From positions 9,273-29,375 of the forward strand of contig JAUNDF010000022.1 of assembly GCA_030526225.1 (NCBI GenBank): a DNA stretch of 20,103 nt, given 5' to 3'. The position numbers and the translations under genes are program-made. The notes beneath the pieces are model-generated. The model ran no database searches and was not told the DNA's origin. It worked only from the letters and a program-made list of their open reading frames with translations. This stretch comes from Clostridia bacterium. Its GTDB lineage: Bacteria; Bacillota; Clostridia; Christensenellales; Aristaeellaceae. Position 1 is the first letter of the stretch; each line of letters starts with the position of its first letter. Shown piece after piece: positions 1,981 through 19,516 of the stretch.

Positions 1981-2029
1981 ACTGTCAACCTCACGAATAT
2001 GCTTGATTTTGTGCAAAACACATAGGGGT

Positions 2030-2058: not shown

Positions 2059-2061
2059 CCG

Positions 2062-2529
2062 TCAGCCGCGTGTCAGGTGAGCCAGCAGGCTTTCACAGGC
2101 CTCGGTAATGTCATCCCAGCAGGCGGAAAAATCGCCGCTGTACCACGGGTCGGCGATGTCCCGGGGGCGGTCTGAAAAATCCAGCATGCGGTGGATTTTG
2201 CCCTCTGGGTCGCTGGGGATGATGCGCCTGAGGTTGCGGATGTTCCAGCTTTCCGCGCACAGCAGCAGGTCAAAGTCCTCGTAATCCGCAGCCGTCACCT
2301 GCCGGGCCCGCTTGCCTTCGCAGCGGATGCCGTGGCGGCGCAATTCATCCCTCGCCGGGGGATACACCGGATTGCCGATGCCGTTCCAAATCTCCTCGGT
2401 GCTGGTGGCCGCCGACTCCGCGTAAAACGCCTTCTCCAGCCCCCGCTTTTGCACCATGTCCTTGAAAACAAACTAAGCCATTGGGCTGCGGCAAATATTG
2501 CCGTGGCAAATGAACAGGATTTTCTTCAT
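2062..2529 (-). CDS. Low-molecular-weight protein-tyrosine phosphatase interrupted by one in-frame TAG at codon 19 (2473-2475)
   Basis: ATG 2527-2529 with GGAGAG upstream gives MKKILFICHGNICRSPMA-TAG-FVFKDMVQKRGLEK... in one frame. The CX5R(S) P-loop lies before the TAG and the D-loop DIADPWYSG after it. The total of 155 codons is the normal family size. Stop is TGA. Under the standard code this would be annotated as a pseudogene or as the 131-aa fragment 2062-2457. Confidence 0.85.
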
Positions 2530-2559
2530 CGTCTTTTCTCTCCGTATAAGTGCTGTGTT

Positions 2560-2644
2560 TCTTCTCAAATGCCCGATATTTCCGGGATTGCGGCATTTTT
2601 GCATTTCTTCGTCTGCGGGATATCTTCTCAAATCTTCCCGGATT
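2560..2644. repeat. Two imperfect direct repeats next to the integrase 3' end (candidate arm-type or end-region sites)
   Basis: TCTTCTCAAATgcccgatatTTCCGGGATT (2560-2589) and TCTTCTCAAATcTTCCCGGATT (2623-2644), with starts 63 nt apart, in the 183-bp spacer between the int stop and the LMW-PTP start. Confidence 0.5.
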
Positions 2645-2679
2645 TTCTCATGCTTTTCTCCGCAAAATTGGTAAAATCG

Positions 2680-2704
2680 TTGGTAAATTTCGTGTGTTTA
2701 CCAA
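2680..2704 (-). terminator. Hairpin just downstream of int (weak terminator candidate)
   Basis: TTGGTAAA (2680-2687) pairs with TTTACCAA (2697-2704) around a 9-nt loop, 9 nt after the int stop. Only a modest T-rich tail follows on the minus strand. A third direct copy of TTGGTAAA lies at 2668-2675. Confidence 0.4.
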
Positions 2705-2712
2705 TGGGGTTT

Positions 2713-3912
2713 TCAGCCCTGAGCCAAACGCTGAAGCTCGTCCTTCACATCATCGAAATGCACATGGGTGTAAACATTCATCGTGACGCCGATGTCGGCA
2801 TGGCCCATGATGTACTGCAGCGTTTTGGGGTTCATGCCGGATTTCGCCATGTTGGAGCAGAAGGTGTGGCGGCATACATGCGGGGTCACCTTGGGCATCT
2901 GGATGCGGTAAATCCTGTTGTACTTGTCTACAATGTGCTGGATGTACTTTTCCCAGTGCAGGGCAACCATGGGCTTCTCGTTTTTGTCCAGAAACAGGAA
3001 GCCGATATATCCATCCACCATGGGCTCCACCTTCGGCTTCACACGATTGGCAAGGATGCGGCGGAAACAGGCAGCTACTTCCTCTGTCATGGGGATATAG
3101 CGGACACCGCTTTCCGTCTTGGGCGATTGAATCACATATTCCATCTGTGATGTCCGCTGCAGCTGATGATCAACCTTGATGCGCATCTGGTCGAACTCGA
3201 TATCAGCCATGGTCAATCCACAGAATTCGGAAATGCGCAGCCCCGTGTGGAAAAGGATGTAGATGCCATCGTAGTACCGGCAGAAATGCTTGTCCTCCTG
3301 GATGAACCGCAGCAGCTCCCGTTCCTGCTTTCGGGTGATGGCCTCCCGGGTAACGGAATCATTCACAATCACAGAGGCCAGCTCGAAGCCAAAGGGATTC
3401 TTGCGAATCAGGTCATCATCCACCGCCATCTGAAAGGCCGGACGCAGCACACCTCTGATGGAGTGAATGGAGCTGTAGCCCCGACCATCCACCTGTTGGA
3501 GCTTAATCAGCCACGCCTTTGCATCAGACAGGCGTACCTTGTCGATACGCAGGCTGCCGAAGGGGTCTTTGTTCAGGAGGCTGATGACCGTTCGATAACC
3601 GGCGCGGGTGTTGTGGGTTACGCCGGTTTTCAGGGATACATATTTCTCAACCAGCTCCACCACCGTGTAATTCCCGCCGTGGGTCACAATGTGGTCAAAG
3701 AGGTCTGCCTGAATCTGCTTTTCCTTCTCCCGCAGAGAGGGCTCACGTTTTTTGCCCTTGGGCATGGGATCGTTCTTGTCCAGCCGCCAGCTGTACACAT
3801 TCTTTTCTTTGCCGTCCTCGTCGATATAACGGTAACGATACCGCCCATCGGCTCGCTGATATTCGCCATCGTGCAGAATCCGGTTACGGCTGTCTCGTCT
3901 TTTTTCGCTCAT
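2713..3912 (-). CDS. int: Tyrosine recombinase / integrase, Tn916 Int family, with N-terminal arm-binding domain
   Basis: The N-terminus MSEKRRDSRNRILHDGEYQRADGRYRYRYIDEDGKEKNVYSWRL closely resembles the Tn916 Int arm-binding domain. The catalytic region has HTGLRISE (Arg), HVCRHTF (His-x-x-Arg), GHADIGVT and NVYTH (Tyr). RBS is AAAGGAGAG. Stop is TGA. Confidence 0.95.
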   Translation of the reverse strand: MSEKRRDSRNRILHDGEYQRADGRYRYRYIDEDGKEKNVYSWRLDKNDPMPKGKKREPSLREKEKQIQADLFDHIVTHGGNYTVVELVEKYVSLKTGVTHNTRAGYRTVISLLNKDPFGSLRIDKVRLSDAKAWLIKLQQVDGRGYSSIHSIRGVLRPAFQMAVDDDLIRKNPFGFELASVIVNDSVTREAITRKQERELLRFIQEDKHFCRYYDGIYILFHTGLRISEFCGLTMADIEFDQMRIKVDHQLQRTSQMEYVIQSPKTESGVRYIPMTEEVAACFRRILANRVKPKVEPMVDGYIGFLFLDKNEKPMVALHWEKYIQHIVDKYNRIYRIQMPKVTPHVCRHTFCSNMAKSGMNPKTLQYIMGHADIGVTMNVYTHVHFDDVKDELQRLAQG

Positions 3913-3934
3913 GGAATCTCTCCTTTCAAAAGAA

Positions 3935-3980
3935 GGAGAGCCAGACTTGCGATTTCATTGTATCACAAATCTGACTCTCC
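3935..3980 (-). terminator. Long xis-int intercistronic hairpin with U-tract (attenuator/terminator candidate)
   Basis: On the minus strand, GGAGAGUCAGAUUUG pairs with CAAGUCUGGCUCUCC (15 bp including 2 G-U pairs, 16-nt loop), followed by UUCUUUUG. The 3' arm CUCUCC can alternatively pair with the int RBS GGAGAG (plus 3918-3923). Confidence 0.55.
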
Positions 3981-4031
3981 GTATAGCTATGTCATGGGAA
4001 AACGGCAGTTTTGCCATGATGGTTTTACAAA

Positions 4032-4268
4032 TCAGACAGCGGTGGCCTGATCCAGGTACCGCTCGAACTTTTCGCGCTTAATCAATGCCCGGTTGCCGTT
4101 CATCACATAGAAATCCTCATGCGGATGCTGGTCAATGAGCATGCGCAGTTTTCCTTCGCCGATGTGGTAGTACCGTGCTGCTTCCTCGATGGTCAGCGTA
4201 TACCGGCGCCATACGGGGATGTCATAATACTTCATTTCGTTTTCGTTGTTCTTGATATTTGCCATCAA
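4032..4268 (-). CDS. xis: Excisionase (Tn916 Xis-like HTH protein)
   Basis: The 78-aa product contains [30 protein letters not shown]...[19 protein letters not shown]. This closely parallels Tn916 Xis ([29 protein letters not shown]...IMNGNRIQIKRKQFEKI). It lies directly upstream of int. RBS is GGAGGTG. Confidence 0.9.
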   Translation of the reverse strand: [78 protein letters not shown]

Positions 4269-4308
4269 TATTCACCTCCAGAGATTAGAGCAGAGAGAGG
4301 CCGGTGCG

Positions 4309-4491
4309 GTGTCTGACACACTGACACACCGGCACACACGGTTTGAAAACTTTTTTCTTTCTGCTCCTATGTTTTTACTATTTCAAACTCTTTATATTTT
4401 AGTGTGTCAAGTGTGTCAAAAGCCGGAAACCCTTCTCTCATAAGGGTTTGACCGACACACTGCCTGACACACCCGCTGACACACTGTGTCA
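4309..4491. repeat. Iteron field: at least 8 copies of TGACACAC / GTGTGTCA in both orientations around an AT-rich core
   Basis: Forward copies lie at 4314-4321, 4322-4329, 4465-4472 and 4477-4484. Degenerate forward copies lie at 4331-4339 and 4453-4460. Reverse copies lie at 4402-4409 and 4411-4418. Terminal palindromes are GTGTCTGACAC (4309-4319) and TGACACACTGTGTCA (4477-4491). An 8-bp hairpin AAACCCTT/AAGGGTTT lies at 4427-4449. Confidence 0.85.
4391..4419 (-). promoter_or_regulatory. Candidate xis-int promoter embedded in the iterons
   Basis: On the minus strand: TTGACA (4414-4419, part of an iteron), a 17-nt spacer, then TATAAA (4391-4396). Three iterons then lie in the roughly 115-nt leader before xis. 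Confidence 0.5.
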
Positions 4492-4508
4492 AAAGGGAAT
4501 GAAATTGA

Positions 4509-4727
4509 TTAAGTTATGGCCTTGAACCCTTCATCTATACGGGTTTCTCGGAGGCCGAAGACGCTGCGCGGCAGCGCCCTGATACAATCATCGGCACCAG
4601 CGTGCCGTTCTTTCATAAAATATTCAATTGTCAGTGAATTGGTTTGCCGTTCGTACTGTCTGTGCTTCCCTCCCTTGGCTTCAAAGACTATGGGTGGGAC
4701 GGGCGACCCACCCATGATTTGCATCAT
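4509..4727 (-). CDS. Hypothetical small protein (72 aa), start overlaps the relaxase stop
   Basis: The ATG at 4725-4727 overlaps the relaxase TGA (4724-4726) as ATGA, which suggests translational coupling. I recognise no motif. Stop is TAA. Confidence 0.3.
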   Translation of the reverse strand: MMQIMGGSPVPPIVFEAKGGKHRQYERQTNSLTIEYFMKERHAGADDCIRALPRSVFGLRETRIDEGFKAIT

Positions 4728-5962
4728 CGTTCATATGCATGCCGTTTGCCGGTGTGCAGCTTCGGCTTCAGTTTTTCAACCACCGCAGGGCGAACAGCCT
4801 CGGTAATCTTGAACTTGGTATCGTCTTTGCGGATGGGAGACATCAGGCGAATCCGCACATCTTCGGCCATGGAGAGCAAGGCGCTGAACAAATCTTCCTT
4901 TGTTTTGCCAAGCCATTGCAGAATCGTTCCCCTGACGGTAGGCGGGGCATCACTGCCGGCAGCATAGATGGCGTTCTCGAACCGAAGGTCGATTTGACGG
5001 GCAGTCACTTCATGCACGATCTTGCTGACATCCTCAACGGCCTTGTCGTAGCACTCCGAAGTGACCTCATCCAGCAGAGTGTCAACATCCTCCAGCCGCA
5101 GGAGCTTTGCATCCAGCTCGGCTTCTTTCTCAGCCAGGGCAGCGTCCTTGGCTTCGATTTCAGCCTTTTGTGCTTCAATCATTGCCTTCTGCTTTTCGAT
5201 GATGTAATCGTTCTTCTCCAGATACTCCCGACCGCCGTAGATGGCCTCGCGCTCGACTTCCACCCCGTGGGCTTGACAGATGTCAAGGAGCAGCTCCCGG
5301 CAGATGTTGTCGAAGGTCTTCTTCCGATGATTGTCCCGGCCCGGCTTCTGATTGGGATACGGCAAGGGAATCCCCAGCTGCTCCAGCGCCTTCTCCTGCT
5401 TCGGCTCCACCTCGCCGTAGCGGTTGGTGATGTCGAAAACCTGCCTTGCATGGATATGCGGTGAGGTTTCGTCCAAATGCAGTGCCCAGTCCAGTACATG
5501 GACATGGCTGCCATATTTCTGTTCCAGCGTGTCGAAGAACTCGGTCACGATGGCTGTCAGCACCTCCGGCGGAGGACAATCGCCCTCCTTGCCGATTTGG
5601 TACACGGTCTCCTCGGGGCAGAATCGCTTGTCCTTCAGCAAATCGTCCACCGTGCGGTTGCGCTTCATGTGGCCGGATTTCTTGTTGCGCTGATGCTGTC
5701 CGGCGATGTAATCACCATAGCGGCGTTCATACTCATCGTGTTCGTGCTGATTGAAGGTGGGATACAGGCCGCTCATCTGCTCCTCATGGGTGCGCAGACC
5801 GTTCCGGCAATCCCAGTAGAGGTTGTGCTGAGTTCGGGCTTGGTCGATGTTCTCGGCGTTGGCTACATCGAAGTTGCGGTCGTTGTGCTTGGGGTTGTAA
5901 ACGCCGTGCTTTCCGGCTCGACCGTTGTGCCGGGAAACACGCTTCTTTTCAGGCATGGACAT
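4724..5962 (-). CDS. MobV-family relaxase (Mob_Pre / plasmid recombination enzyme type)
   Basis: It carries the signature HLDETSPHIHA (HxDExxPHxH metal-binding motif of MobV relaxases) and a coiled-coil-like C-terminal half (EKQKAMIEAQKAEIEAKDAALAEKEAELDAKLL). I chose the start at 5960-5962 (MSMPEKK) because a perfect AAAGGAGG lies upstream. The longer ORF to 6034 is rejected. Confidence 0.9.
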   Translation of the reverse strand: MSMPEKKRVSRHNGRAGKHGVYNPKHNDRNFDVANAENIDQARTQHNLYWDCRNGLRTHEEQMSGLYPTFNQHEHDEYERRYGDYIAGQHQRNKKSGHMKRNRTVDDLLKDKRFCPEETVYQIGKEGDCPPPEVLTAIVTEFFDTLEQKYGSHVHVLDWALHLDETSPHIHARQVFDITNRYGEVEPKQEKALEQLGIPLPYPNQKPGRDNHRKKTFDNICRELLLDICQAHGVEVEREAIYGGREYLEKNDYIIEKQKAMIEAQKAEIEAKDAALAEKEAELDAKLLRLEDVDTLLDEVTSECYDKAVEDVSKIVHEVTARQIDLRFENAIYAAGSDAPPTVRGTILQWLGKTKEDLFSALLSMAEDVRIRLMSPIRKDDTKFKITEAVRPAVVEKLKPKLHTGKRHAYER

Positions 5963-6240
5963 GCCTCCTTTCTTTTTGGTTGGTAGCCTCCCCGCAGGGA
6001 GCCTGTGTTTTTCGGCAGGCAATACCCAGTACAAAGTGTCGAATCCCTCCGGGCCACTTCGCTTTCAACACTTCACTGGGCCAAAGGGCTGCGGCCCTCT
6101 GGACTTCCGGGGAATACAACAGGGCCACGCCCTTCGGTACGACCCTGTTGATGCGGTGCTCCTTTGGTGCAAATTGATGCCATCTCGCCGACCGTCTCGC
6201 ACCATCGGAGCCGGATTTGGTGCGGATTCGCACCGGCCGG

Positions 6241-6582
6241 TCAGCTGCCCATCATGTCCAGCAGCGTGTCGATGTCCTCGTCATCCGGCGCATCATCTGC
6301 GACGGGCTCGGACGGTTTTGCCTGCCTCATTGCCTGCATCAGCGTTGCGAGTGCGGAGGAGGACAATTCCTCCCGGACAATGGCTCGGATGGCATCCTTC
6401 TGATGCTCATCAAAGCAGGGGGCTTCCCGCTGATGACCGTAGTAGCCATTGACCGCATGAACGATGGCCTCGGTCAGTTTGATATGCTGCTCATCCCGCG
6501 CCTGATACAGAAGAGTCAGCGCTGCCTGATGCTCAGGCTTGTCTGCATACAGCCGAAGGGTTGTGCGAAAAATCTCCTTCAC
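6241..6582 (-). CDS. ParR-like partition adaptor candidate (ribbon-helix-helix-like N-terminus, acidic C-terminal tail)
   Basis: The 113-aa ORF has a GTG start overlapping the parM stop (GTGA). The N-terminus FRTTLRLYADKPEHQAAL looks like a strand-helix (RHH) element. The C-terminus DDAPDDEDIDTLLDMM is acidic. The position downstream of parM matches parMR organisation. The function is inferred from context only. Confidence 0.45.
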   Translation of the reverse strand: MKEIFRTTLRLYADKPEHQAALTLLYQARDEQHIKLTEAIVHAVNGYYGHQREAPCFDEHQKDAIRAIVREELSSSALATLMQAMRQAKPSEPVADDAPDDEDIDTLLDMMGS

Positions 6583-7505
6583 TGCGCCTTCGCCTCACGC
6601 TTCAGCCGCCGTTCTGCAAGATACTCATAGCCCTTGGCAGAGGCGTGAATGTCGCTGATGATGGTCACCCGATTGGCATCATACTGCCCGAAATTGCGAA
6701 TCAGACACCCGCCACCGCCCACAATCCACAGGCGCATGGTCTTGGGATCGTATTCGTGCTCGCGGAGCTTGCGCATGATTTCTGCCACATAGGCCGCGGC
6801 AGCATCACGAATCACCCGCACATACTCCGGGTCGATATCCGCGGTGCCCTCGCGCATCACCTGCTCAATGGCCACATCGGGCACCGTGCGGCCGCACAGA
6901 CGGGTCAGGGCTTCACGAGCCCGCAGCACGCACTGATGAGTGCCGTACTTCTCCGTGTAGCACTGGTCCGGCACGGGCTTGCGGTCGTTGATGCTCATGA
7001 CAATCATGGTGCCGTTGCCGATGTCGCAGAGCATGTTGGCTCCGGTGAACTTCTTCAGCTCGGGGATGACGGCGGAGTAGCCCTGGGCGTACACATCAAC
7101 GCCCACAATATCGATATGGTAGTCGATGCCCCGCCAGACGAAGTCCACATGGCGGTTTTGCCACAGATACGCCCGAAAGGCTTCCCGCTGATTGTCCACC
7201 CAGGTCAGGGGCAGGCCCACCGCCAGATGCACCGCCGCCGTGGTCATGCGGTTGTGCCACAGCTCCTGCCCGATGCCGGCCAGGGTCAGGATGTAGTGGT
7301 CCAGATTGCTCACCTTGTCCAGGGTGAATTCCCGGTGGCCTGCGCCGATGACATAGTACTTGCCATCGTAAATGAGCAGGTCGTGGGCATGGGCGGGTTC
7401 TGCGTCATAGCAGACCACGCTGGCCGGGAAGATGCCGTTGGCCGTCTTGATGTTGCCATAGCCGTTGTCCAGGCCGATGATGTGGATGTTGTTGAATGTT
7501 TTCAT
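6579..7505 (-). CDS. parM: ParM/StbA-family actin-like segregation ATPase
   Basis: The 308-aa product has the actin-fold phosphate-1 motif IGLDNGYGNIK near the N-terminus, then CDIGNGT and WIVGGGG motifs, as in ParM/StbA. RBS GAGG lies 8 nt upstream. Confidence 0.85.
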   Translation of the reverse strand: MKTFNNIHIIGLDNGYGNIKTANGIFPASVVCYDAEPAHAHDLLIYDGKYYVIGAGHREFTLDKVSNLDHYILTLAGIGQELWHNRMTTAAVHLAVGLPLTWVDNQREAFRAYLWQNRHVDFVWRGIDYHIDIVGVDVYAQGYSAVIPELKKFTGANMLCDIGNGTMIVMSINDRKPVPDQCYTEKYGTHQCVLRAREALTRLCGRTVPDVAIEQVMREGTADIDPEYVRVIRDAAAAYVAEIMRKLREHEYDPKTMRLWIVGGGGCLIRNFGQYDANRVTIISDIHASAKGYEYLAERRLKREAKAQ

Positions 7506-7550
7506 ATGGTTACCTCATTCTTTCTCCTGCGTTTGCAGGGTAAAATAATA

Positions 7551-7574
7551 GGCAGACAGCAATTGCCATCTGCC
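7551..7574. promoter_or_regulatory. Palindrome upstream of parM (candidate parC/operator)
   Basis: GGCAGAcagCAATTGccaTCTGCC has outer 6-bp arms and a central CAATTG that are self-complementary. It lies about 45 nt upstream of the parM start. Confidence 0.35.
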
Positions 7575-7635
7575 ATAGGGAAAAAACGGGAATCACAGGT
7601 GCACAATCAAGGGCACCACCTCCTTTCAAAAGGGC

Positions 7636-7668
7636 AAACAAAAACGCCAACGGATGATTCCGCAGGCG
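7636..7668 (-). terminator. Terminator-like hairpin in the parM leader (copy A of a duplicated 29-nt module)
   Basis: On the minus strand, CGCCTGCGGA-ATCA-TCCGTTGGCG is followed by TTTTTGTTTG. It lies about 25 nt downstream of the candidate promoter at 7701-7729 and is nearly identical to the hairpin at 8463-8486. Confidence 0.5.
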
Positions 7669-7700
7669 CTGCATGGTTTTTATCCACTTTTACATAATAC

Positions 7701-7729
7701 AGTATATCATGTCAAGAGCGTGCCATCAA
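7701..7729 (-). promoter_or_regulatory. Candidate promoter of the parM-parR operon
   Basis: On the minus strand: TTGATG (7724-7729), a 17-nt spacer, then TATACT (7701-7706). The -10 lies inside the palindrome ATACTGTAT. Confidence 0.4.
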
Positions 7730-7824
7730 CGTAATGATTCGTCAGGGAGTGTCGGCTGCTGTCAGTCGTTTGTCCGGCGTTGTCATCAGCTACGAGGACA
7801 GCTGGCCTGCGGTCTTATCAGCCG

Positions 7825-7868
7825 AAAAAAGCATAAGAAAAAGGAGCCTGATTTCGTCAGACTCCTTT
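7825..7868 (-). terminator. Rho-independent terminator of the sigma-like regulator gene
   Basis: On the minus strand, AAAGGAGUCUGA pairs with UCAGGCUCCUUU (12 bp with one G-U pair, loop cgaaa), followed by UUCUUAUGCUUUUUU. It lies about 40 nt after the stop at 7909. Confidence 0.7.
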
Positions 7869-7908
7869 ACCCATCCTCTGCATCATACAGTATAGCACAA
7901 GTTTTCTG

Positions 7909-8370
7909 TCAATTCATGTCACCGGCTGTCGCTTCCTGTCTGATTCTGTCACCAATTTCAACCTCCAGCAGCCGGTTCAGTTCTGCAAGTGCTCTGTCCT
8001 TCAGGGTGTAGACAAACTGCCGGGCGATGAATTCCTCCCGGGCGATGTCGGTGATGGTGCGCCCTTCCAGATAATGCTTCCGCAGAATGGCGGCGCCGTG
8101 GTTCGTGTTCAGCCTGCCCAGCATATCATCAATCTTGTTCAGAATCCGCGTCCGCTCGTTTTCCAGTCGATTGGCCTCGTCGGATGCTTCTACATAGCTG
8201 AGAATGGCTGTTTCTTGAACAGACACATCCAAAGTCCTCTGGACACCGCAGCGTTTGATGGATGCGGCAATCCTCTCCGCAGTCTCTCTGCAGCGGTCTT
8301 CCTTCATCCGCGCAGTGAGGAGCTTCTTGTTAATCACAACGCCTTCCGCCAGAAAATCCAATGCCAGCAT
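7909..8370 (-). CDS. Sigma-70 region-4-like HTH regulator (DUF1492/ArpU-like, analogous to regulators on Tn916-type elements and phages)
   Basis: The C-terminal AILRKHYLEGRTITDIAREEFIARQFVYTLKDRALAEL resembles a sigma region 4 HTH. I chose the start at 8368-8370 (MLALDFL), which has a G-rich RBS and a promoter just upstream. The longer ORF to 8559 would run through the promoter and terminator. Confidence 0.7.
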   Translation of the reverse strand: MLALDFLAEGVVINKKLLTARMKEDRCRETAERIAASIKRCGVQRTLDVSVQETAILSYVEASDEANRLENERTRILNKIDDMLGRLNTNHGAAILRKHYLEGRTITDIAREEFIARQFVYTLKDRALAELNRLLEVEIGDRIRQEATAGDMN

Positions 8371-8403
8371 CAACAACACCCCCCGAATAGCGTTCTTAAA
8401 AAG

Positions 8404-8450
8404 AGAACAAATGTTCTTGTTTATTATAGTGCTATTTGGGGATGGGGCAA
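8404..8450 (-). promoter_or_regulatory. Promoter with a Cheo-box-like palindromic operator
   Basis: On the minus strand: TTGCCC (8445-8450), a 16-nt spacer, then a perfect TATAAT (8423-8428). Five nt further downstream is the perfect 14-bp palindrome AGAACATTTGTTCT (8404-8417), which matches GAAC-N4-GTTC. Confidence 0.55.
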
Positions 8451-8452
8451 GG

Positions 8453-8486
8453 GAAAGAAAAACGCCGGCGGATGATTCCGCTGGCG
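8453..8486 (-). terminator. Rho-independent terminator of the AEC transporter gene (copy B of the duplicated hairpin module)
   Basis: On the minus strand, CGCCAGCGGA-ATCA-TCCGCCGGCG is followed by TTTTTCTTT. It lies 44 nt after the stop at 8531. Confidence 0.7.
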
Positions 8487-8530
8487 TGGGTGTGTATTTG
8501 CCGTCCTGAATCTGTTTGCCGGGCTGATTT

Positions 8531-9484: not shown

Positions 9485-9499
9485 AAGCGCTCCTCCTTA

Positions 9500-9542
9500 C
9501 AGAAAAGAAGGCAGGCACATGCCGGAAAAGCATGCACCTGCC
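9500..9542 (-). terminator. Hairpin with T-tract between the RraA-like gene and the AEC gene (partial terminator/attenuator candidate)
   Basis: GGCAGG..CATGC (9510-9522) pairs with GCATG..CCTGCC (9530-9542) with a 2x2 internal mismatch. On the minus strand it is followed by TTCTTTTCT, directly before the AEC RBS. Confidence 0.45.
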
Positions 9543-9559
9543 CGGAAGAATCCTGCAGA

Positions 9560-12177: not shown

Positions 12178-12261
12178 TCTCTGTTCCTCCGTTTTTAATG
12201 ATGGGAGACCCGATTGCTCGAGTCCCCCGTTTCAGCATCAGATTCAGTTATTTGAATGCAA

Positions 12262-13230
12262 TCAATCAGTAATCAGACCGATTTCACGATAGTAACGCTC
12301 TGCACCGGGGTTGAAGGGAATGATGGGCGTTGCGATAGTCTCGGTGGAAATCTGGCGGGTAGCGGCGTTGGTATCAATGTAGGTGGGCAGGGTTTCCATC
12401 ATCAGCTTGCAGAAAGCGTAGATCTGATCGTCATCCACATTGGAGGAGCAGAACAGGCAGGTCAGATAGGACAGGGTCATCACAGAATCTTCGTTTGCCT
12501 GATTCTCATAGGTGCCGGCAGGAATCTCGCTCTTGATGGCAAAGGGATACTCGGCAATGATCGCATCGCAAACTTCTTCGCTGACGGGCAGCATACGGAA
12601 GCTGGTGGTAGCGGCATACTGCTGAATGCCGGCAATGGGATAGCCGCCGGTCTGGAAGGCAGCGTCAATGTCGCCGTTGGCCAGTGCTTCTGCAGCCTCG
12701 GCATAGTTCATGTAGAAGGGAGTGATGTCATCCAGGGTGATGCCATAGGCAGCCAGGATTGCTTCGTCGATGAACAGATAGCTGGTGCCCTGAGAGCCTA
12801 CGCAAACCTTCTTGCCCTTCAGCTCGGAGATGTCATTGATGCCGCTGTTGGCATTAACGAACACATGCAGCTGGGACTGATACAGCGCGGCAACTTCCTG
12901 AATGTCCTGAGCGCCGTCGTTTGCATAGGTCATGGTGCCGGTGTATGCGCCATACAGGGCGTCACTGTTGCCCATGCCAATCTGAATGTCGCCGGACTGT
13001 ACCAGCTGTACGTTTTCACCGGAGCCGGCAGTTGCCTGCACCCAAACCTTCAGCTTGCCTGCTTCAGAAACAGCATTGCCGATGGCGGCGCCAACATAGT
13101 AGAAAGTACCGGTGGAGGAAGCAGTGCCGAGCACCAGGTCGCCGGAAACGCTGTAAGCATCAACCTCGGCAAAGGCAACGGAGGACAGCAGCATGGCAAT
13201 AGCCAGCAGGGCAGCAAAGAACTTTTTCAT
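12262..13230 (-). CDS. TAXI-family TRAP transporter solute-binding protein
   Basis: It has a signal peptide (MKKFFAALLAIAMLLSSVAFA) followed by LGTASSTGTFYYVGAAIGNAV...SGENVQLVQSGDIQIG, as in TAXI (immunogenic-protein type) receptors. RBS is AAAGGAGAA. Confidence 0.9.
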   Translation of the reverse strand: MKKFFAALLAIAMLLSSVAFAEVDAYSVSGDLVLGTASSTGTFYYVGAAIGNAVSEAGKLKVWVQATAGSGENVQLVQSGDIQIGMGNSDALYGAYTGTMTYANDGAQDIQEVAALYQSQLHVFVNANSGINDISELKGKKVCVGSQGTSYLFIDEAILAAYGITLDDITPFYMNYAEAAEALANGDIDAAFQTGGYPIAGIQQYAATTSFRMLPVSEEVCDAIIAEYPFAIKSEIPAGTYENQANEDSVMTLSYLTCLFCSSNVDDDQIYAFCKLMMETLPTYIDTNAATRQISTETIATPIIPFNPGAERYYREIGLITD

Positions 13231-13299
13231 GACAAAATTCTCCTTTTCTATTTTTTCACCTGAAACACACGTTCAGGGTGAACTCCGTTTTGTAAGATT

Positions 13300-14040
13300 T
13301 TATACCAGCTCTTCGCCGGCAACCGGGAAGAAGTTGGAGAAGCACTCACCGTACTTGTAGGTCTGATTACCGGAAATGCGGCGCAGGTGATTGCCGCGCA
13401 GGAAGGCGCGCTCGGTGTAGTATTCAATCAGATGATTCTGAGCCTTGAAGCACTTCATGGCTGCCACCTTCTGTTCATACACCTCGGAAATATCAACCAG
13501 TTCACCGGGCACGAATTTGCTCAGCTCTGTCTGATGGGGCTCAAAGCCAAACAGGCGCATCTGCTTGGTCGTCTTGGTGCCTTCAATGCGAACACCGTTG
13601 GAGTTGGACTGAATGCTGCACTCAAACACAAAGCGGCTTACGGCGTTGTGGTCGGGGTTCAGCACATCCTCGCCCATCTTATCGTGGGTCAGGATGATGT
13701 CGGGGCGTACTTCGCGAATCTTGCGAATCAGGCGCTCGCGAACATTCTCATCCAGCGCGGGAGCCATGGGATAATCGGGCAGATCCCAGAACTCAATGTT
13801 CTTGATGCCCAGGATTTCGGCTGCTGCAGTTGTTTCTGCCAGACGTTCTGCCTTAACGCTTTCGGCGGTTGCGCCTTCCTTCTTCCACAGGTCGTTGCTT
13901 TCGCCGCGAATGCCAAAGCTGAGCACCACCACATGCACATCAGCGCCGTGTTTAATGTACTTGGCAATTACACCGCCTGCACGCCACACATAGTCTGCAG
14001 CATGTGCGCTGACCACCAGTACCTTCTTGCCTTCAATCAT
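13300..14040 (-). CDS. PIG-L/LmbE-family deacetylase
   Basis: The N-terminus VLVVSAHAADYVWRAGG is a variant of the AHPDD motif. DIILTHD and NPDHNAV motifs follow. The 246-aa length fits the family. RBS is GGAGGAA. Confidence 0.8.
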   Translation of the reverse strand: MIEGKKVLVVSAHAADYVWRAGGVIAKYIKHGADVHVVVLSFGIRGESNDLWKKEGATAESVKAERLAETTAAAEILGIKNIEFWDLPDYPMAPALDENVRERLIRKIREVRPDIILTHDKMGEDVLNPDHNAVSRFVFECSIQSNSNGVRIEGTKTTKQMRLFGFEPHQTELSKFVPGELVDISEVYEQKVAAMKCFKAQNHLIEYYTERAFLRGNHLRRISGNQTYKYGECFSNFFPVAGEELV

Positions 14041-14063
14041 CGCTCATTCCTCCAAATCTTATA

Positions 14064-14960
14064 TCATTCCAGACCAAGAAGCTTCTTGGGATTATAAACG
14101 GTTGTCTTGCGGACTTCCTCAACGGAGTAGCCTGCTTCGTACAGCTTTTCCGCATAAGCCAGCATGCCTTCATCGGGGTAGATGGCGGTCTTCTGGCCAA
14201 GGTCGGTTGCCAGAACAATATGGTCGGGGCCGATTGCCTTAATCTGTTCCATGGTGGTTTCGATGGGGCACTTGCCGGTGGCCCAGGTGGTGTAGCAGTG
14301 CTCGATGTAGGCGCCCATATCCAGGAACTTCTTCTGTTCCTCAACCGTGTAGAAGGTGGTGGGGAAATCAGCATGCGTTACCAGGATGTTCTTTACGCCC
14401 ATTTTGCTTGCCTCGCCGCACAGGGCAAAGGCTTCTTCATGACTCATATGGCCGGTTGCAAGAATCATATCGTACTTGGCAATCACCTTCAGCACCGTGT
14501 AGGCTTCTTCGGTCAGGCCGCCTTTTTCATCCAGTACGGTAACGGTAGGAGCGGCATTGCCGGCAGCGGCCATCTCCTGTACGATGGTTGCCCAGTAGGG
14601 CTGCTTCTTGTATTTGCCGGAGAGAACATAGGCGCGCTCGTGCGCAGAATCGCAGGTGGGGAACCAAACCAGCTTGGCACCGCTTCTTGCGGCCATTTCC
14701 ACAGCGGAAGGATTAATGCCGCCCACGCTGGAATTCAGGGTGATGGCACCGATTGCATTGCAATCAGGGAACATCTTGTTAATCAGCTCTGCACGTTCGC
14801 TGGTGCAGAAGTAATGGCTTTTGATAATGTAGCCGGCCATGCCGCTCTGCTTAATCCGCTCGGCCATTTCAATGTCATCCATCTTGCGGGGAAGAACATC
14901 GGGTGCAGAATGCACATGCATATCATAACCGCCGAGAATCAGTTCCTTCATGTCTGCCAT
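14064..14960 (-). CDS. Metal-dependent hydrolase, amidohydrolase/TIM-barrel-like (DUF6282-like), substrate unknown
   Basis: It has GYDMHVHSAPD near the N-terminus, an internal ATGHMS, and LVTHADFP and ATDLGQ motifs suggesting metal ligands. I chose the start at 14958-14960 (MADMKEL), which has the GAGAGGAG RBS. The longer ORF to 15197 runs through the AT-rich promoter region. Confidence 0.65.
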   Translation of the reverse strand: MADMKELILGGYDMHVHSAPDVLPRKMDDIEMAERIKQSGMAGYIIKSHYFCTSERAELINKMFPDCNAIGAITLNSSVGGINPSAVEMAARSGAKLVWFPTCDSAHERAYVLSGKYKKQPYWATIVQEMAAAGNAAPTVTVLDEKGGLTEEAYTVLKVIAKYDMILATGHMSHEEAFALCGEASKMGVKNILVTHADFPTTFYTVEEQKKFLDMGAYIEHCYTTWATGKCPIETTMEQIKAIGPDHIVLATDLGQKTAIYPDEGMLAYAEKLYEAGYSVEEVRKTTVYNPKKLLGLE

Positions 14961-15035
14961 GGTTTTACTCCTCTCACATTGCAAAAATAAAACACTTTCT
15001 GGACAAATTTTACCTTTGCGCGTTGTTGTGACTAA

Positions 15036-15064
15036 AAGATAGCATAAACAAAAACGGTTGTCAA
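15036..15064 (-). promoter_or_regulatory. Candidate promoter of the hydrolase-to-transporter operon
   Basis: On the minus strand: TTGACA (15059-15064), a 17-nt spacer, then TATCTT (15036-15041), within an AT-rich divergent intergenic region. Confidence 0.5.
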
Positions 15065-15131
15065 TATCGTTTTGCATAAATTTTTTACAAAATTGTTCAA
15101 CAATCTCGTTTAATTTGATTCGAGGACAATG

Positions 15132-15160
15132 TTGACTTTTTTTCTTACTAATGATATCAT
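15132..15160 (+). promoter_or_regulatory. Candidate promoter of the GntR-family regulator gene
   Basis: TTGACT (15132-15137), a 17-nt spacer, then TATCAT (15155-15160). The leader of about 105 nt contains a 7-bp hairpin GAGACAG/CTGTCTC (15226-15245). Confidence 0.55.
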
Positions 15161-15273
15161 AACCACAAGCAGAGAAGACCAAGGAAGCTTTCAGCAATAA
15201 TTGAATTTTCCTTTCTTTTTTCTGAGAGACAGGACTTGCTGTCTCCTTTGTTCAGTGAAAGGAGATTATCCAT

Positions 15274-15918
15274 ATGGCCGCTACACAAACAACACAGGTC
15301 TATCAGGACTTGAAACATAAAATACTGCATAGTGGTTATGCGCCTTCCGAAAGTCTTCCCGAAGCCGATTTGGCAACAACATATTCCGTCAGCCGCAATA
15401 CCATCAAAAAAGCACTGCTTATGCTGGAAAACGACGGCCTGGTCGTTATCGAACCAAACAAGGGCGCCAAGGTTCGCTCTTATTCCAAAACAGAAGTGCT
15501 CGAGTATCTGGAAATCCGCGAAGTGCTTGAGGAACGGCTGATGAAGCTTGCCGTGCCCGCCATGACAGCAGATGATTTCGAAAAGCTGGATAGAATTACA
15601 GCATAGATGCTGCAGGCAAAAACAGAAGGCCGCCTGTCAGATTATTCATCCGGCAACCGGGCCTTCCATTCTGTTTTCTATGATGTATGCCCGAACCGTT
15701 CCCTGGCGCAGCTGATTGTCAACCTGAAGAACCAGATGAGAAAATACAACAGCAAAACCGTTCTGATTCCCGGCAGAACCGACAATGGCTACCAGGAACA
15801 TCTGGCCATTCTTGAGGCAGCCCGTTCCGGCGACGGCGAAACAGCAGCCAAAGCCATCGTCAAGCACATTCAGGGCGTACGGCAAATATTTGAGGATAAT
15901 TTCGATTTGCTGTTCTGA
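15274..15918 (+). CDS. GntR/FadR-family transcriptional regulator interrupted by one in-frame TAG at codon 111 (15604-15606)
   Basis: The N-terminal winged HTH (LPEADLATTYSVSRNTIKKALLMLENDGLVVIEPNKGAKV) and the C-terminal FCD-type domain (NRAFHSVFYDVCPN..., EHLAILEAARSGD) are in the same frame. They are joined by ...DRITA-TAG-MLQAKTEG. The combined 214 codons is the normal family size. RBS is AAAGGAGA. Stop is TGA. Confidence 0.85.
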
Positions 15919-15968
15919 AAGAATTGCTGCATCAAAACCGCTTTCAGTAATTTACATAGGAACAAATG

Positions 15969-16022
15969 AAAAAGACCGTTGACGCCTGATCGTATCAGAT
16001 TTCAATGGTCTTTTGTTTGTTT
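15969..16022. terminator. Terminator between the convergent GntR and response-regulator genes
   Basis: AAAAAGACCGTTGA (15969-15982) pairs with TCAATGGTCTTTT (16002-16014) with one G-T pair, plus an inner CTGAT/ATCAG stem. On the plus strand it is followed by TTTTGTTTGTTTG. Confidence 0.75.
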
Positions 16023-16095
16023 GCCTTTGATAACATTGTATCTGGAAATGTTGTTAATACTCATCCAACGCAGCCCGCGCAACTGTCCTCCATCA

Positions 16096-17625
16096 TCAAT
16101 CACTTTTCCTCTCCCTGTATTCTCCCGGGGTCATGCCATACTGCTTTTTGAAAAGGCGGTTGAAATAGAAGGGATCGTCAAACTCGACCAGAGAGGAGAT
16201 GTCCTTCGCAGAGGCACTGCCCTTGCGCAGCAGGGAGGCTGCTTTTTCCAGACGGATACGCGTGAGAAACTGCAGAATGCTCTCGCCGGTTTCCCGCTTG
16301 AACAGCCGGCACAGGTAGCTTTTGTCCAGATTAATCATGCCGGCGAGCATTTCCAGGGTGATGCGGTCTGCGTAGTGCTGCTGCAGGTACAGAATCACCG
16401 TTCTGACATCGGCGTTTTTTCCATCATCAGCCGTGTCCGGCAGCTGCAGCAGAGACGGCAGCAGGCTGTGCAGCAGGGAGCACAGCTGCTGAGAAGAGGT
16501 GCACGCAAACACCTGCACATGGCTGGCAAAGGTAATGCTTTCGGAGACATTTGGCTGATTGATAATCAGGCGCTGGAGCAGCAGAAAAATGTAATGCTTC
16601 AATGATTGGGGAGCGGTTCTGCTTTCCCTGCAGCGCTGAATCAGGCTTTGCACCCAGATATCCGCGCTTTCCGGATTTTTTGCGAAGGCATCTGCCAGCT
16701 GAACAGCGGCTGTTTCGGGTGGAGGGGAAGGGACCTCCTGACTGAACGGACTGCCGTCGGCAACAGTACAGCACTGCGCCGATTGTGCTGATTGATAGAA
16801 GAAGTCCTGTGCATCCTGTCTGCAAATGCGCAGCTGCTCAAGCAGACCCTCCATGGAAGAAAACGGCTGTGAAACAAGAATGCCGGCGCTGCAGTTCAGG
16901 TATGTCTTCAGCTGACGCACCATCTGGATGCCCCGCCGCTGCAGCATGGAAGCATCCTGCGCGAATGATACAGGGACCAGGCAGAGATGCTATTGCTCAT
17001 TCAGGCACAGCACATCCGCCTGCTCATTCAGGTTTGCCAGCAATATGTTGCGGATGCTCTTGCGTGCCGCGGCGCGCTGCTCGGCGTTGATAACCACATT
17101 CATCAGCCGGTAAGGTGTGTGGGGCAGCATGATGGCCGGGTCTTTGCAGTTTTCTTCTGTCAGTGTGTAGCCCAGCAGAAAGTCTCTCAGCAGCGTTCTT
17201 CTGTAATCATCGGTCATTGATGTGCCGATGTGCCGGGCATCTGTGCAGCTTGTCAGGTTGGCAGAGAGCTGCTCAAGGGCTTCACGCATGGAATCCTCTT
17301 CCATGTCCGTCTTCAGCAGATAATCCCTCGCCCCTAACTGCATGGCCTGACGGACCAGGGAAAAATCGGAATAATTGCTGAGGACAAGGATGGCCCCCTG
17401 AAACCCGCCTTTTTTCAGATGCCGGATCAGCTCAAGGCCGTCCATTTGGGGCATTTTCATATCCGTGATGACGATGTCCACCGGGGTGCTTTCCAGAAAA
17501 GTCAGCGCCTCTTCACCGTTGGCAACCATGCCGGCAATGGCCCATGGCGTGTCAGCCCAGGGCAGCAGATTGCGGAAGGTCATCCGGATGACAGGCTCAT
17601 CATCAACCAAAAGCAGCTTGTACAT
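16096..17625 (-). CDS. YesN-like response regulator (REC + AraC-type HTH) interrupted by one in-frame TAG at codon 212 (16990-16992)
   Basis: The start MYKLLLVDDEP at 17623-17625 overlaps the kinase stop (TAATG). The REC domain includes DIVITDMKMPQMDG. After ...CLNEQ-TAG-HLCLVPVSF the same frame continues to the AraC HTH (ITLEMLAGMINLDKSYLCRLFKRETG...FDDPFYFNRLFKKQYGMTPGEYR). The 509 codons is typical for the family. Confidence 0.9.
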
Positions 17626-19337
17626 TATTCCACCTCCTTTTGCAGCGGAATGATGATTTCGCAAACGGTTCCCTTGTCCGGCGCTCCGGAAAGAGATACA
17701 CCGTAGGAGGACCCGTAATGCAGCCGGATGCGCTCGGCCACATTGGAAAGCCCGATGCCGGAGGACTTGCCGCCTGCATCCTTTTCTTCACGAAGGCCGG
17801 TGCCGTCATCAGCTACTGTCAGATGAAGACAGGGGCCCTCACAGCGCGCACTGACCGTGATGGTCATGATGCGCCCGTTATCGGGCATGCCGTGAATGAT
17901 GGCGTTTTCCACCAGAGGCTGCAGAATAAAGCGGGGCACGGGCACAGCATTGGCGCTGTCATCCACATGGAATATCAAATCAAAGCCGTCGCCGTACCGC
18001 AGCTTCTGGATGGAGCCGTAGCAGGCCAGGTCCTGCATCTATTCAGACAGCGGATGCATATCCTTTTTGCCCAGCAGGGTGCTTTTCAGCAGTGTGCACA
18101 GGGATGAAATGCCATCGTGAAGTGCAGGCACACCATTGAGGTCGGCAATCCATTTGAAGGTGTTCAGCGTGTTGAACAAAAAATGCGGGTTAATCTGATA
18201 CTGCAGAGCGGAAAGCTCCAGCTCCCGCTTGCGTTCCTCGTTTTTCTTCTGCTGCTCTGCCATGTCGCAAAGCCGGGCAATCAGGTTATCCAAGGTTCGG
18301 GCAAGCACGCCCAGCTCATCGGGGCTGTGGTCGCTCAGGGGCTGGGACAGGGCAGAAAGGTTTCTGCCGCAGTGCTTCATCATTTGCTGGATGGGCTGCA
18401 TAATGGAGGCGTAAACAAGCAGCATGGCAAGAAAACTGATGACAAACAGACCGGCCGCCACCAGTATCAGTGTCTTCAGCACACCCTGCATCCTGCCGTA
18501 GATTTCCGAATAGGGGATGGCGACAAAAAAGCGAAAGCCGTACACATCGCTGACACAGCTGGTCAAAAGATATTGGCGGCTGTTCAGGGAGAAGGTGCGC
18601 TCGGAGCCGTCAGTCAGCTGCGCTGCTTCGCCGGCGAGGGTTTCGTTTTCGGCCGCATCATCCGGAAAAAACAGTGCGCCGTCGGCAGAAGAAAAGAAGG
18701 TGATGGCGCCGCTGCCGAAGGAAATATCCGCCAGAATTTCGCCGCGCAGCAGCTGGGGGCTGAGGCAGATCATGATGTAGCCCTTTTCCGACAGCGTGGG
18801 GGCAAAGCGGAACAGCTTGCGGCCCAGAATCAGGCCGCCGTTGGGATTTACGCGCAGATAGCCGCCGGCCGTGCCTGTGTTGAATTGCTCCAGCACATCC
18901 CGGGGCAGAATATCAAAGGTGCTTTCGTAGCCGGCTGATCCAATCAGCGAGCCGTGTGCGTCATATACCTGCACATCGCGCAGATGCTTCTATGCGCCAA
19001 AGGTTTTCAGACCCTTCCGGATGAACGTGCCCAAGGGCCCTGCGTATGTCTGCCCGGCATCATAGGCATCAAACAGCGCATTCAGTTCGTCTGACAGGCT
19101 GAGTGCATTCAGGTATGTGCCGTAGGGAACAAGGGCTGTCTACAGGTTCCGAGTCATCAGCCGCAGGGATTGGAACGTATGCTCCTGCACCTTTTCGCGG
19201 ATGGTTGTTGTGTAAACATTGCTGGCATACAGGCCGAATACAAGCACCGGAATCAGCGAGCAGGCAAGGATGGCAAACAACAGCCTTGTCTGAATACGAA
19301 ACCGGCGAAGGATACGGATGAGGATATTCCGTTTCAT
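17625..19337 (-). CDS. YesM-like sensor histidine kinase (2 TM segments, HAMP, His_kinase PF06580-type, HATPase) interrupted by three in-frame TAGs (19140-19142, 18990-18992, 18039-18041)
   Basis: A single frame runs from ATG 19335-19337 to TAA 17625-17627, 570 codons. It contains TM1 LLFAILACSLIPVLVFGLYA and TM2 LILVAAGLFVISFLAMLLVYA. The H-box region is LQYQINPHFLFNTLN, the N-box is LQPLVENAIIHG, and the G-boxes are DDGTGL and GIGLSNV. The ORF track splits it into 65-aa, 311-aa and 137-aa pieces plus an unlisted segment, and every break is a TAG. Confidence 0.9.
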
Positions 19338-19516
19338 ATAAATTGCCCCCGGATATTGATTATTGACGGACCGAATGATATGTCATGTCTGTCAAGCGCA
19401 AATAACAGCAGATGGTTCTCGGCATCACATGACAGCTTGAATTGGCATTATTTTACACGATATTTTTACATCAGGCAATGACTGCTGCGCAGAATTCCAA
19501 GTTCGTCCGTGAAAAA

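Follow-up and report, generated by a model that had tools for sequence, protein, structure and literature searches.

Six in-frame TAG codons, five of them at glutamate positions, in regulatory genes of an uncultured Clostridia bacterium

The stop codon reassignments known from bacteria all concern UGA (Codetta paper), which is read as Trp in Mycoplasmatales, insect endosymbionts, and Eggerthellaceae (code 4) and as Gly in Gracilibacteria/Absconditabacteria (code 25). In these codes, a tRNA has captured a stop codon that is rare in the lineage, and standard-code gene callers break conserved genes at this one codon and no other. No natural bacterial reassignment of UAG to an amino acid is on record in the literature that we searched; such a reading therefore has a low prior and, if true, would be new for bacteria. 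Outside bacterial chromosomes, gut phages that use code 15 (crAss-like, Lak, and others) infect standard-code hosts, recode amber by means of suppressor tRNAs, and have TAG in a subset of their genes, where it specifies Gln. The nuclear codes of peritrich ciliates and Blastocrithidia nonstop read UAG as Glu by way of GAG/GAA to UAG/UAA changes, with alterations in eRF1 and recoding of UAA as well. In pyrrolysine-using organisms (Acetohalobium, Desulfitobacterium, Bilophila, and archaea), UAG has a sense meaning without a strict cis element, TAG terminators are few, and the decoded sites lie in methylamine methyltransferases. Finally, in amber-suppressor strains such as Escherichia coli supE and supD, in-frame UAG is read, in competition with RF1, by a tRNA that acts in trans through its CUA anticodon, and amber alleles persist where insertion of the suppressor's residue yields the wild-type protein again. 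Natural coliform isolates that carry suppressors also exist.

The window analyzed here, a 20-kb stretch of DNA, belongs to a metagenome-assembled genome (MAG) of an uncultured gut-type Clostridia bacterium available at NCBI (locus tags Q4C54_, proteins MDO4483736-55), the closest relatives of which are Faecousia-like Oscillospiraceae. It contains six in-frame TAG codons in four otherwise intact regulatory genes (table 1), and these genes adjoin a TRAP/TAXI catabolic cluster for which a relative shows synteny. The initial annotation had located the six codons and described reading frames that continue across them without a frameshift, TAA, or TGA; on the coding strand we found every one of these positions to be TAG, the frames to be continuous, and the four genes to be free of any TAA, TGA, or frameshift/indel lesion. 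The sequences preceding the start codons conceal no additional TAG. The codon is sparse, as in-frame TAG corresponds to 1.7% of Glu codons.

Table 1. Genes with in-frame TAG codons and positions of these codons in the window
Feature	Coordinates	Strand	Description
Low-molecular-weight protein tyrosine phosphatase (PTP) gene	2062..2529	-	155 codons, stop TGA, TAG at codon 19
PTP codon 19, in-frame TAG	2473..2475	-	Immediately follows CX5R(S) P-loop (CRSPMA-TAG-F)
GntR/FCD-family regulator (GntR) gene	15274..15918	+	214 codons, stop TGA, TAG at codon 111
GntR codon 111, in-frame TAG	15604..15606	+	Inside FCD domain
YesN-type response regulator (RR) gene (REC + AraC HTH)	16096..17625	-	509 codons, stop TGA, TAG at codon 212
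RR codon 212, in-frame TAG	16990..16992	-	Linker region
YesM-type sensor histidine kinase (HK) gene	17625..19337	-	570 codons, stop TAA, TAGs at codons 66, 116, and 433
HK codon 66, in-frame TAG	19140..19142	-	Sensor domain
HK codon 116, in-frame TAG	18990..18992	-	Sensor domain; sole site not aligned to Glu
HK codon 433, in-frame TAG	18039..18041	-	Inside His_kinase (PF06580) domain

The six TAG codons are not errors of a single assembly: all of them are carried by Logan contigs of run SRR24915835 (L082, L001, and L165, the last of which contains the PTP site), which are 100% identical to window positions 1360-3753 and 7605-19918. Two different assemblers thus gave identical bases across 14.7 kb; the Logan contigs and the MAG were probably built from the same reads, in which case this agreement checks the assembly and not the biology. 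The TAG codons might be artefacts, stemming from errors in the assembly or consensus, from damage to the library, or from minor alleles that came to represent the consensus: the coverage of the MAG appears to be low, as the Logan contigs from the same run are just 1.7-6.2 kb long, and G>T is the signature of oxidative library damage. We consider such an artefact highly unlikely, given that the two assemblers agree at all six sites, that a consensus is not plausibly wrong at 3.6% of first bases of GAG codons, and that random G>T changes would strike GAA as often as GAG (185 and 168 codons, respectively, in the window genes), yet TAA interruptions are absent (P = 0.012).

When TAG is read through, the four genes have the domains and lengths of their families, as the initial annotation had proposed. 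The restored PTP matches the Pfam model LMWPc over residues 4-149 (e value 3.5e-31), that is, across codon 19, and its top match in the PDB is YfkJ from B. subtilis (2.9e-29); PGAP calls only the 131-aa downstream fragment of this gene (MDO4483736). The GntR gene matches the GntR (residues 6-67) and FCD (78-200) models, the latter spanning codon 111; its full-length orthologues number more than 100, measure 214-215 aa, and include a syntenic one in locus L166. The RR, with Response_reg (5-115) and HTH_18 (427-506) domains, aligns over its full length to orthologues of 504-524 aa, among them those in loci L002 and L003. The HK contains HAMP, His_kinase (374-451, running over codon 433), and HATPase_c (470-566) domains in which H385, N478, and the DxGxG box are all conserved; its orthologues form ten clusters at 52-61% identity, are 572-581 aa long, and are never interrupted.

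Aligning the in-frame TAG codons to orthologue columns, a check that the initial annotation had suggested, placed five of the six on Glu columns, and the chance of at least five of six sites falling on Glu is 6.6e-6. Two of these columns are invariant: HK433 is Glu in 13/13 orthologues and in 83/83 tblastn homologues, and PTP19 is the Glu of the CRSPxAE motif in 4/4 displayed solved LMW-PTPs. Glu is also found in 11 of 13 orthologues at both RR212 (as well as in L002 and L003) and HK66, where the remaining two have Gln. At GntR111, Glu is the residue of P0131, the nearest orthologue at 71% identity, with GAG as the codon in L166, and the family column consists of Q16/E8 plus other residues. 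Of the true Glu codons in the TAG-bearing genes, 44-88% are matched by Glu in the closest orthologue; thus, the TAGs behave like Glu codons. The exception is HK116, where all 13 orthologues have Gly (GGG in L002 and GGT in L003) and where at least two substitutions are required to turn a Gly codon into TAG; this site counts against a reading as Glu. Summed over all six columns, the log-odds are +8.9 for Glu, -3.5 for Gln, and -6.9 for Lys, favoring Glu over Gln by ~12 nats. A Glu- or Gln-like assignment had been proposed previously, and of its two halves these values favor Glu. Placement on Glu columns is strong evidence beyond the arguments advanced in the initial annotation, the interpretation of which is partly supported: a Glu-like sense reading of UAG best fits the site-level data. 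We give about an even chance to the explanation that a trans-acting tRNA decodes UAG as Glu, if perhaps only partly; one 20-kb window fits this reading and is compatible with unusual gene decay as well.

We regard it as quite unlikely that UAG is recoded to a residue other than Glu, either by a Gln suppressor as in phage code 15 or by site-specific recoding of the pyrrolysine or selenocysteine type. TAG-to-Gln is the known amber recoding of gut phages, and Gln does occur at GntR111 (16/35 sequences) in addition to HK66; however, under a Gln code TAG would be expected mainly on CAG/Gln columns, CAG (172 codons) being as common as GAG in the window, and the negative Gln and Lys log-odds and the two invariant Glu positions count against such recoding too. 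These invariant positions also argue against a bulky Lys derivative such as pyrrolysine. Pyrrolysine-using organisms share the paucity of TAG stops, but no methylamine methyltransferase or pyl genes are present in the window, and no SECIS- or PYLIS-type hairpin was found downstream of the TAGs. A code-15 phage genome, in which TAG would be expected on Gln columns and chiefly in late or lytic genes, does not match the window either: the TAGs lie on Glu columns, and the genes that carry them encode an LMW-PTP, a GntR regulator, and the two proteins of a two-component system.

The four genes may instead be nonsense pseudogenes, that is, a dispensable two-component system, GntR repressor, and phosphatase untranslated past the first TAG, which we hold to be the main alternative and a serious possibility but somewhat improbable. 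Ordinary nonsense pseudogenes likewise have premature stops under code 11 in non-essential genes, PGAP annotates the pieces as separate CDS, and TAG is a real stop codon in relatives. The initial annotation had reasoned that random decay should produce a mix of the three stop codons, but with the codon usage found here the mix would not be even: TAG is the commonest nonsense outcome, expected from 54-60% of random mutations to a stop, and the probability of six TAGs out of six is 0.025-0.05. The ancestry of the TAGs is harder to reconcile with decay. The sources expected in pseudogenes are CAG, TGG, AAG, and TAY in addition to GAG, and under uniform or transition-biased mutation GAG is the source of only 11-19% of new TAGs, so that the probability of at least five of six arising from Glu is 9e-5 to 1e-3. 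The most viable form of this explanation is therefore a G:C>T:A bias, for example from a mutY/mutM-type defect in 8-oxoG repair, that turns GAG into TAG; if only G:C>T:A changes occur, GAG is the source of 91% of new TAGs. Such a mutator accounts for the Glu origin yet predicts TAA as often, and in the G:C>T:A-only spectrum more often than TAG (53% vs. 30%). None is seen; under the full spectrum, the probability of no TAA and six of six TAGs is 8e-4, compared with 0.012 from the GAA and GAG counts. In addition, a single G>T change cannot turn Gly into the TAG at HK116.

Decaying pseudogenes are also expected to accumulate mixed lesions, whereas here there is one stop type, with one ancestral amino acid at five of the six sites, and the three HK stops, which correspond to ~3% neutral divergence, are accompanied by zero indels and leave all catalytic motifs intact. 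Four broken genes out of 20 far exceeds the usual density, and no in-frame TAG was found in real genes among the ~74 ORFs of the closest relatives. There are signs of faster change in the HK lineage, which would favor decay: besides the TAGs, one of which (codon 116) takes the place of an invariant Gly, 10 otherwise invariant columns are changed, mostly conservatively, and a relative-rate test against the P0001 group gave 57 versus 29 unique changes (P = 0.003), although the same test against the P0008 group gave 57 versus 47 (P = 0.33). Either relaxed constraint or basal branching in the tree could underlie this acceleration. For GntR, the corresponding test gave 17 versus 8 unique changes (P = 0.07).

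The genomic distribution of the TAGs bears on both decoding as Glu and decay. Of the five regulators in the window, four have in-frame TAG, compared with none of the 15 remaining genes (P = 0.001), and four of the six TAGs lie in one operon (P = 0.008 under an even spread). Their reported absence from mobile-element and transporter genes holds and extends to the enzymes of the window. The spread expected of a recoded codon is thus not seen within the window, which includes no essential genes. Regulators are a class of genes that is often lost first, and once the operon had its first stop later ones in it would be neutral; a settled neutral reassignment accounts for confinement to regulators together with clustering in an operon less well than does suppression that is partial or leaky, or the decay of regulators that the cell can dispense with. 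Terminators are less informative. Where 14 TGA, 5 TAA, and no TAG had been tallied for 19 genes, our recount gave 15, 5, and 0 for 20, and this lack of TAG had been taken as evidence for a sense meaning. It is, however, common to relatives that do stop at TAG: TAG ends 4 of 74 genes in close relatives and 113 of 634 in other Clostridia loci, and under the close-relative baseline the probability of observing 0 of 20 is 0.33. Complete genes of relatives that end in TAG include an AraC regulator in L002 and a permease in L010. With TAG serving as a genuine stop in the closest relatives, any change of meaning would be very recent. Of the case made originally for UAG as sense, the arguments from TAG-only lesions and from missing terminators are therefore weak and the TAGs are confined to regulators; what upholds it is the placement on Glu columns.

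Termination at TAG followed by re-initiation, with the pieces acting as functional split genes, might be suggested by the ATG that directly follows TAG in GntR (15607) and at HK433 (18036-18038), and HK434 is Met in the window versus Leu, Val, or Ile in orthologues. The Met after GntR111 is invariant across the family and hence not a new start, no start codon lies behind the PTP, RR, HK66, and HK116 TAGs, and neither a PTP that lacks its P-loop nor a kinase cut within its sensor domain can work. We judge split genes to be extremely improbable.

For decoding of UAG as Glu, the RNA around the sites points to trans rather than cis action: the 80 nt from each TAG fold no better than shuffled sequences (z -1.25 to +0.29), and the window has no match to any Rfam family. 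The decoder would be a Glu-charged tRNA that acts in trans and whose anticodon is CUA, most simply derived from the GAG-reading tRNA-Glu(CUC) or charged by a non-discriminating GluRS of the kind typical of Clostridia; no tRNA gene of any kind lies within the window, nor does prfA. Such a tRNA could have captured the codon in a lineage that by then ended very few genes with TAG; GAG to TAG changes would then be nearly synonymous and able to persist, and selection would still purge GAA to TAA changes, frameshifts, and TAGs at non-Glu positions. Decoding would probably be incomplete with RF1 competing, so that TAG would be tolerated only in low-abundance regulatory proteins.

Such a mechanism resembles that of amber-suppressor strains, and the amber alleles found here would again be those at which suppression regenerates the wild-type sequence; the setting differs in that several amber genes occur at once in a MAG of an uncultured anaerobe, the tRNA is postulated, and Glu is not a standard specificity of natural suppressors. 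Compared with the bacterial UGA codes, the codon is UAG, the residue would be Glu, usage is restricted to regulators, and relatives retain the stop. The resemblance to phage code 15 lies in amber recoding in the gut that affects a subset of genes, but here the genes are chromosomal bacterial regulators beside a TRAP/TAXI cluster. Pyrrolysine sites differ in lying off Glu columns. The eukaryotic codes are alike in residue and in the inferred GAG origin, whereas in the window TAA ends 5 of 20 genes and interrupts none.

All six in-frame TAG codons that the initial annotation had reported in four genes were verified at their positions, and they are the sole interruptions: the frames carry no other lesion and no further TAG lies upstream of any start. 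The restored proteins match their orthologues in length, as had been proposed, and three of the TAGs are each spanned by a single Pfam domain. The motifs said to be intact are so: the YesM-type histidine kinase (HK) retains the phosphoacceptor His along with the N and G boxes, and the low-molecular-weight tyrosine phosphatase (PTP) its P-loop and DPWY loop; in addition, the YesN-type response regulator (RR) retains its acidic pocket, D55 and K105. Logan contigs (separate assemblies of sequencing runs) from run SRR24915835 are 100% identical to window positions 1360–3753 and 7605–19918 with all six TAGs included, an agreement that excludes an assembler artefact and is no biological replication, the contigs and the MAG probably sharing reads. 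A sequencing artefact was rejected, as was a reading of the pieces as functional split genes. The contigs of this run that match window proteins measure 1.7–6.2 kb and all lie inside the window.

The weight-bearing evidence is where the TAGs are placed; the TAG-only and terminator arguments are weaker. Just 5–8% of the positions in the TAG-bearing proteins face Glu in the closest orthologue, so that finding five of six TAGs on Glu has P = 6.6e-6. Genuine Glu codons in these genes face Glu 44–88% of the time, and by alignment the TAGs behave like them. Codetta-style log-odds over the six TAG columns were +8.9 nats for Glu, −3.5 for Gln and lower for all others; of the Glu- or Gln-like assignment first suggested, the Glu part fits these columns best and Gln is rejected, and an assignment to Pyl was likewise rejected. 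We place at about an even chance that UAG is translated as Glu, fully or partly, and to this degree the earlier interpretation is partly supported. If UAG were read as Glu, GAG>TAG would be nearly neutral, and GAA>TAA changes, indels and TAGs at non-Glu positions would remain purged; this single simple model would predict the entire TAG pattern.

Features of the window and residues aligned with the in-frame TAG codons
Feature	Position	Strand	Codon	Description
Peptidase S51 and LexA-like repressor genes				Left end of the window
PTP gene				Right of the LexA-like repressor gene
TAG in PTP	2473–2475	−	19	Glu of CRSPxAE in every solved structure displayed
Small integrative and mobilisable element	2713–7505			Tn916-type integrase, Mob relaxase, ParM-like ATPase
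Catabolic island				AEC permease, RraA-like aldolase, fused TRAP permease, TAXI binding protein, PIG-L deacetylase, DUF6282
GntR/FCD regulator gene	ends 15918			Divergent from the catabolic island
TAG in GntR	15604–15606	+	111	Glu (GAG) in the closest orthologue (71% identity, syntenic locus L166); column Q/E in the wider family
YesN/YesM-type two-component system				Faces the sugar-binding lipoprotein gene
TAG in RR	16990–16992	−	212	Glu in 11/13 orthologues
TAG in HK	18039–18041	−	433	Glu in 13/13 orthologues and 83/83 homologues
TAG in HK	18990–18992	−	116	Invariant Gly in orthologues
TAG in HK	19140–19142	−	66	Glu in 11/13 orthologues, Gln in 2/13

A serious possibility, though one we rate below an even chance, is that the four genes are nonsense pseudogenes, most viably the product of a G:C>T:A mutator. 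Codon usage in the window is rich in CAG, AAG, GAG and TAC, so 54–60% of random nonsense substitutions would give TAG; the TAG-only pattern, initially taken as a sign of sense reading, does hold for all six stops (P = 0.025–0.05) and is weaker than was claimed. Under uniform or transition-biased mutation, GAG would be the source of just 11–19% of new TAGs, and at least five of six arising from Glu has P = 9e-5 to 1e-3. A pure G:C>T:A process, for example from an 8-oxoG repair defect, does derive TAG from GAG, but it yields TAA above TAG (53% vs 30%, from GAA, TAC and TCA), giving P = 8e-4 for six TAGs with zero TAA or TGA, and with Glu codons alone (GAG 168, GAA 185) a TAG-only outcome still has P = 0.012. 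Three stops in the 570-codon kinase gene would correspond to an estimated neutral divergence of about 3%, but the gene is free of indels and has kept its catalytic motifs whole; the TAG at codon 116 of the kinase is unreachable from Gly in one step. Moreover, 4 of 20 genes are interrupted, far over the usual pseudogene density, and in relatives none of some 74 ORFs has an in-frame TAG that lies within a real gene. The remaining probability is shared by three readings: an artefact, functional split genes, and UAG read as some other amino acid.

The distribution of the TAGs sets limits on a settled reassignment. Four of the six lie in the HK–RR operon (P = 0.008), unlike the spread of a synonymous codon, and all four affected genes encode regulators; as noted originally for the mobile-element and TRAP-cluster genes, TAG is absent there, with 0/15 enzyme, transporter and mobile-element genes affected (Fisher P = 0.001). 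This regulator-only clustering fits a partial suppression that low-abundance proteins alone can bear, and it also fits the loss of dispensable regulators. The genome was not filed as recoded, a class defined at genome level by a CUA tRNA, the status of RF1 and TAG in essential genes; within the window the TAGs failed the even-spread test. We consider it unlikely that the change of UAG from stop to Glu is complete or nearly so in this lineage. Unique substitutions in the kinase lineage number 57 vs 29 in one sister group (P = 0.003, about twofold) and 57 vs 47 in a second, where the excess is not significant; at ten columns that hold a single residue across 13 orthologues the kinase differs, mostly by conservative changes. 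This acceleration fits a constraint that is somewhat relaxed, or just a lineage that branches basally.

The lack of TAG terminators was confirmed in the 20 genes counted (TGA 15, TAA 5, TAG 0). It does not serve as evidence of reassignment, since TAG ends are also scarce in close relatives: they account for 4/74 terminators in the closest relatives (GC3-filtered ORFs) vs 113/634 in other Clostridia loci, and given the former 0/20 has P = 0.33. Complete genes ending in TAG, namely those for an AraC regulator (locus L002) and an ABC permease (L010), indicate that relatives do terminate at TAG, and any change of UAG meaning would therefore be recent. TAG trinucleotides occur at about half the frequency of other Clostridia loci (TAG terminators about 5% vs 18%), and the 20-kb window has no CTAG where a second-order Markov model expects 7.8; close relatives (L002, L003, L007, L009–L011) either lack CTAG or have it at a 3- to 10-fold reduced frequency. 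Avoidance of TAG and CTAG looks like a clade-level trait of the window genome and its relatives. Apparent in-frame TAGs in the relatives are antisense junk or belong to a truncated GH2 glycosidase gene (L003, 1–2061, minus strand, Faecousia sp.). The latter ends half-way through its TIM-barrel domain, where the sequence turns abruptly AT-rich and non-coding, and the break is a truncation or assembly junction rather than a recoded TAG.

Near-cognate reading of UAG yields Gln, Tyr, Lys or Trp, not Glu, so insertion of Glu would need a dedicated tRNA with a CUA anticodon. Such a tRNA might plausibly be a mutated form of the GAG-specific tRNA-Glu(CUC), or one that the non-discriminating GluRS of GlnRS-less Firmicutes charges. 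The downstream context of the six TAGs, on an 80-nt scale, holds no hairpin or shared motif, so that a cis element of SECIS or PYLIS type is unlikely and the natural candidate is a tRNA acting in trans. The window contains no tRNA gene and no Rfam family, and no suppressor tRNA was found in the 160-odd fetched loci. Full reassignment would need a dedicated tRNA-Glu(CUA) together with loss or disabling of RF1, and could have proceeded through codon capture, TAG terminators in the clade having already fallen to a few percent. The base following TAG is A at 4/6 sites; an A after UAG is reported to favour amber suppression in E. coli. ATG follows TAG directly at two sites (15604–15609 and 18036–18041); this Met is invariant across the family in GntR and peculiar to the window genome in the kinase, where orthologues have Leu, Val or Ile.

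According to the Codetta survey, known bacterial reassignments all concern UGA. In the literature searched, amber recoding was confined to phages (TAG to Gln), Pyl users among archaea and bacteria, and eukaryotes, including the UAR-to-Glu codes of peritrichs and Blastocrithidia; bacterial UAG-to-Glu was not reported there, nor was run SRR24915835 cited. The case is closest in its working to a classical amber-suppressor strain or to an early codon-capture stage of stop reassignment. Full reassignment, if true, would make this the first bacterial genetic code recoding UAG, and even partial reading would be a natural counterpart, in a free-living gut bacterium, of engineered RF1-free recoded E. 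coli. It would represent an intermediate stage of codon capture, with TAG all but lost as a stop across the clade and TAG sense codons, still sparse, showing up first in low-abundance regulators, and would bear on phage–host code conflicts in the gut. Standard-code annotation would split and mislabel genes of such MAGs. If the genes are instead decaying, they offer a cautionary example in which codon usage and clade baseline alone can yield both "TAG-only" and "no TAG terminators". PGAP calls the TAG-separated pieces independent proteins and not pseudogenes (2062–2457, 15274–15918, 16096–17625 and 17625–19337; GntR, MDO4483749/50; RR, MDO4483751/52; kinase, MDO4483753/54/55), and fragment "proteins" of the MAG are consequently now singleton clusters in protein databases.

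The source contig is 29,375 bp long and belongs to an NCBI MAG, "Clostridia bacterium" (locus tags Q4C54_047xx, proteins MDO4483736-55). The nearest sequenced relatives for these genes, and best matches in a GTDB genome scan, are an uncultured Clostridia MAG from the Hadza gut (L002) and the Faecousia sp. MAG (L003), whose distance (57–62% amino-acid identity) allowed their use as orthologues but neither dN/dS nor the polarising of mutations. All ten window proteins looked up were singleton 90% clusters, indicating no second strain; no candidate paralogue among NCBI-sourced matches bears a Q4C54/MDO448 accession, and among JGI metagenome contigs the restored kinase had no close relative (best match 34% identity). 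The mobile element, which adjoins the PTP gene, also holds two small ORFs; its integrase has Integrase_DNA and Phage_integrase domains, its relaxase is Mob_Pre-like and its ATPase is of ParM/ALP type. Against 72,556 plasmids this region has no close relative (best match 64% identity over 17%). The catabolic island with the divergent GntR gene (8531–15918) is syntenic with L166 1–6715, a Logan contig from a different sample (run ERR13998933), at about 76% nucleotide identity, and the GntR reading frame there is unbroken, codon 111 being GAG. GC3 is 0.79–0.85 in the four leftmost genes (1–2529, PTP included) and the ParM-like gene, and far lower in the catabolic island, GntR (0.55) and the two-component system (0.67–0.69); the TAG-bearing genes thus fall in both compositional classes.
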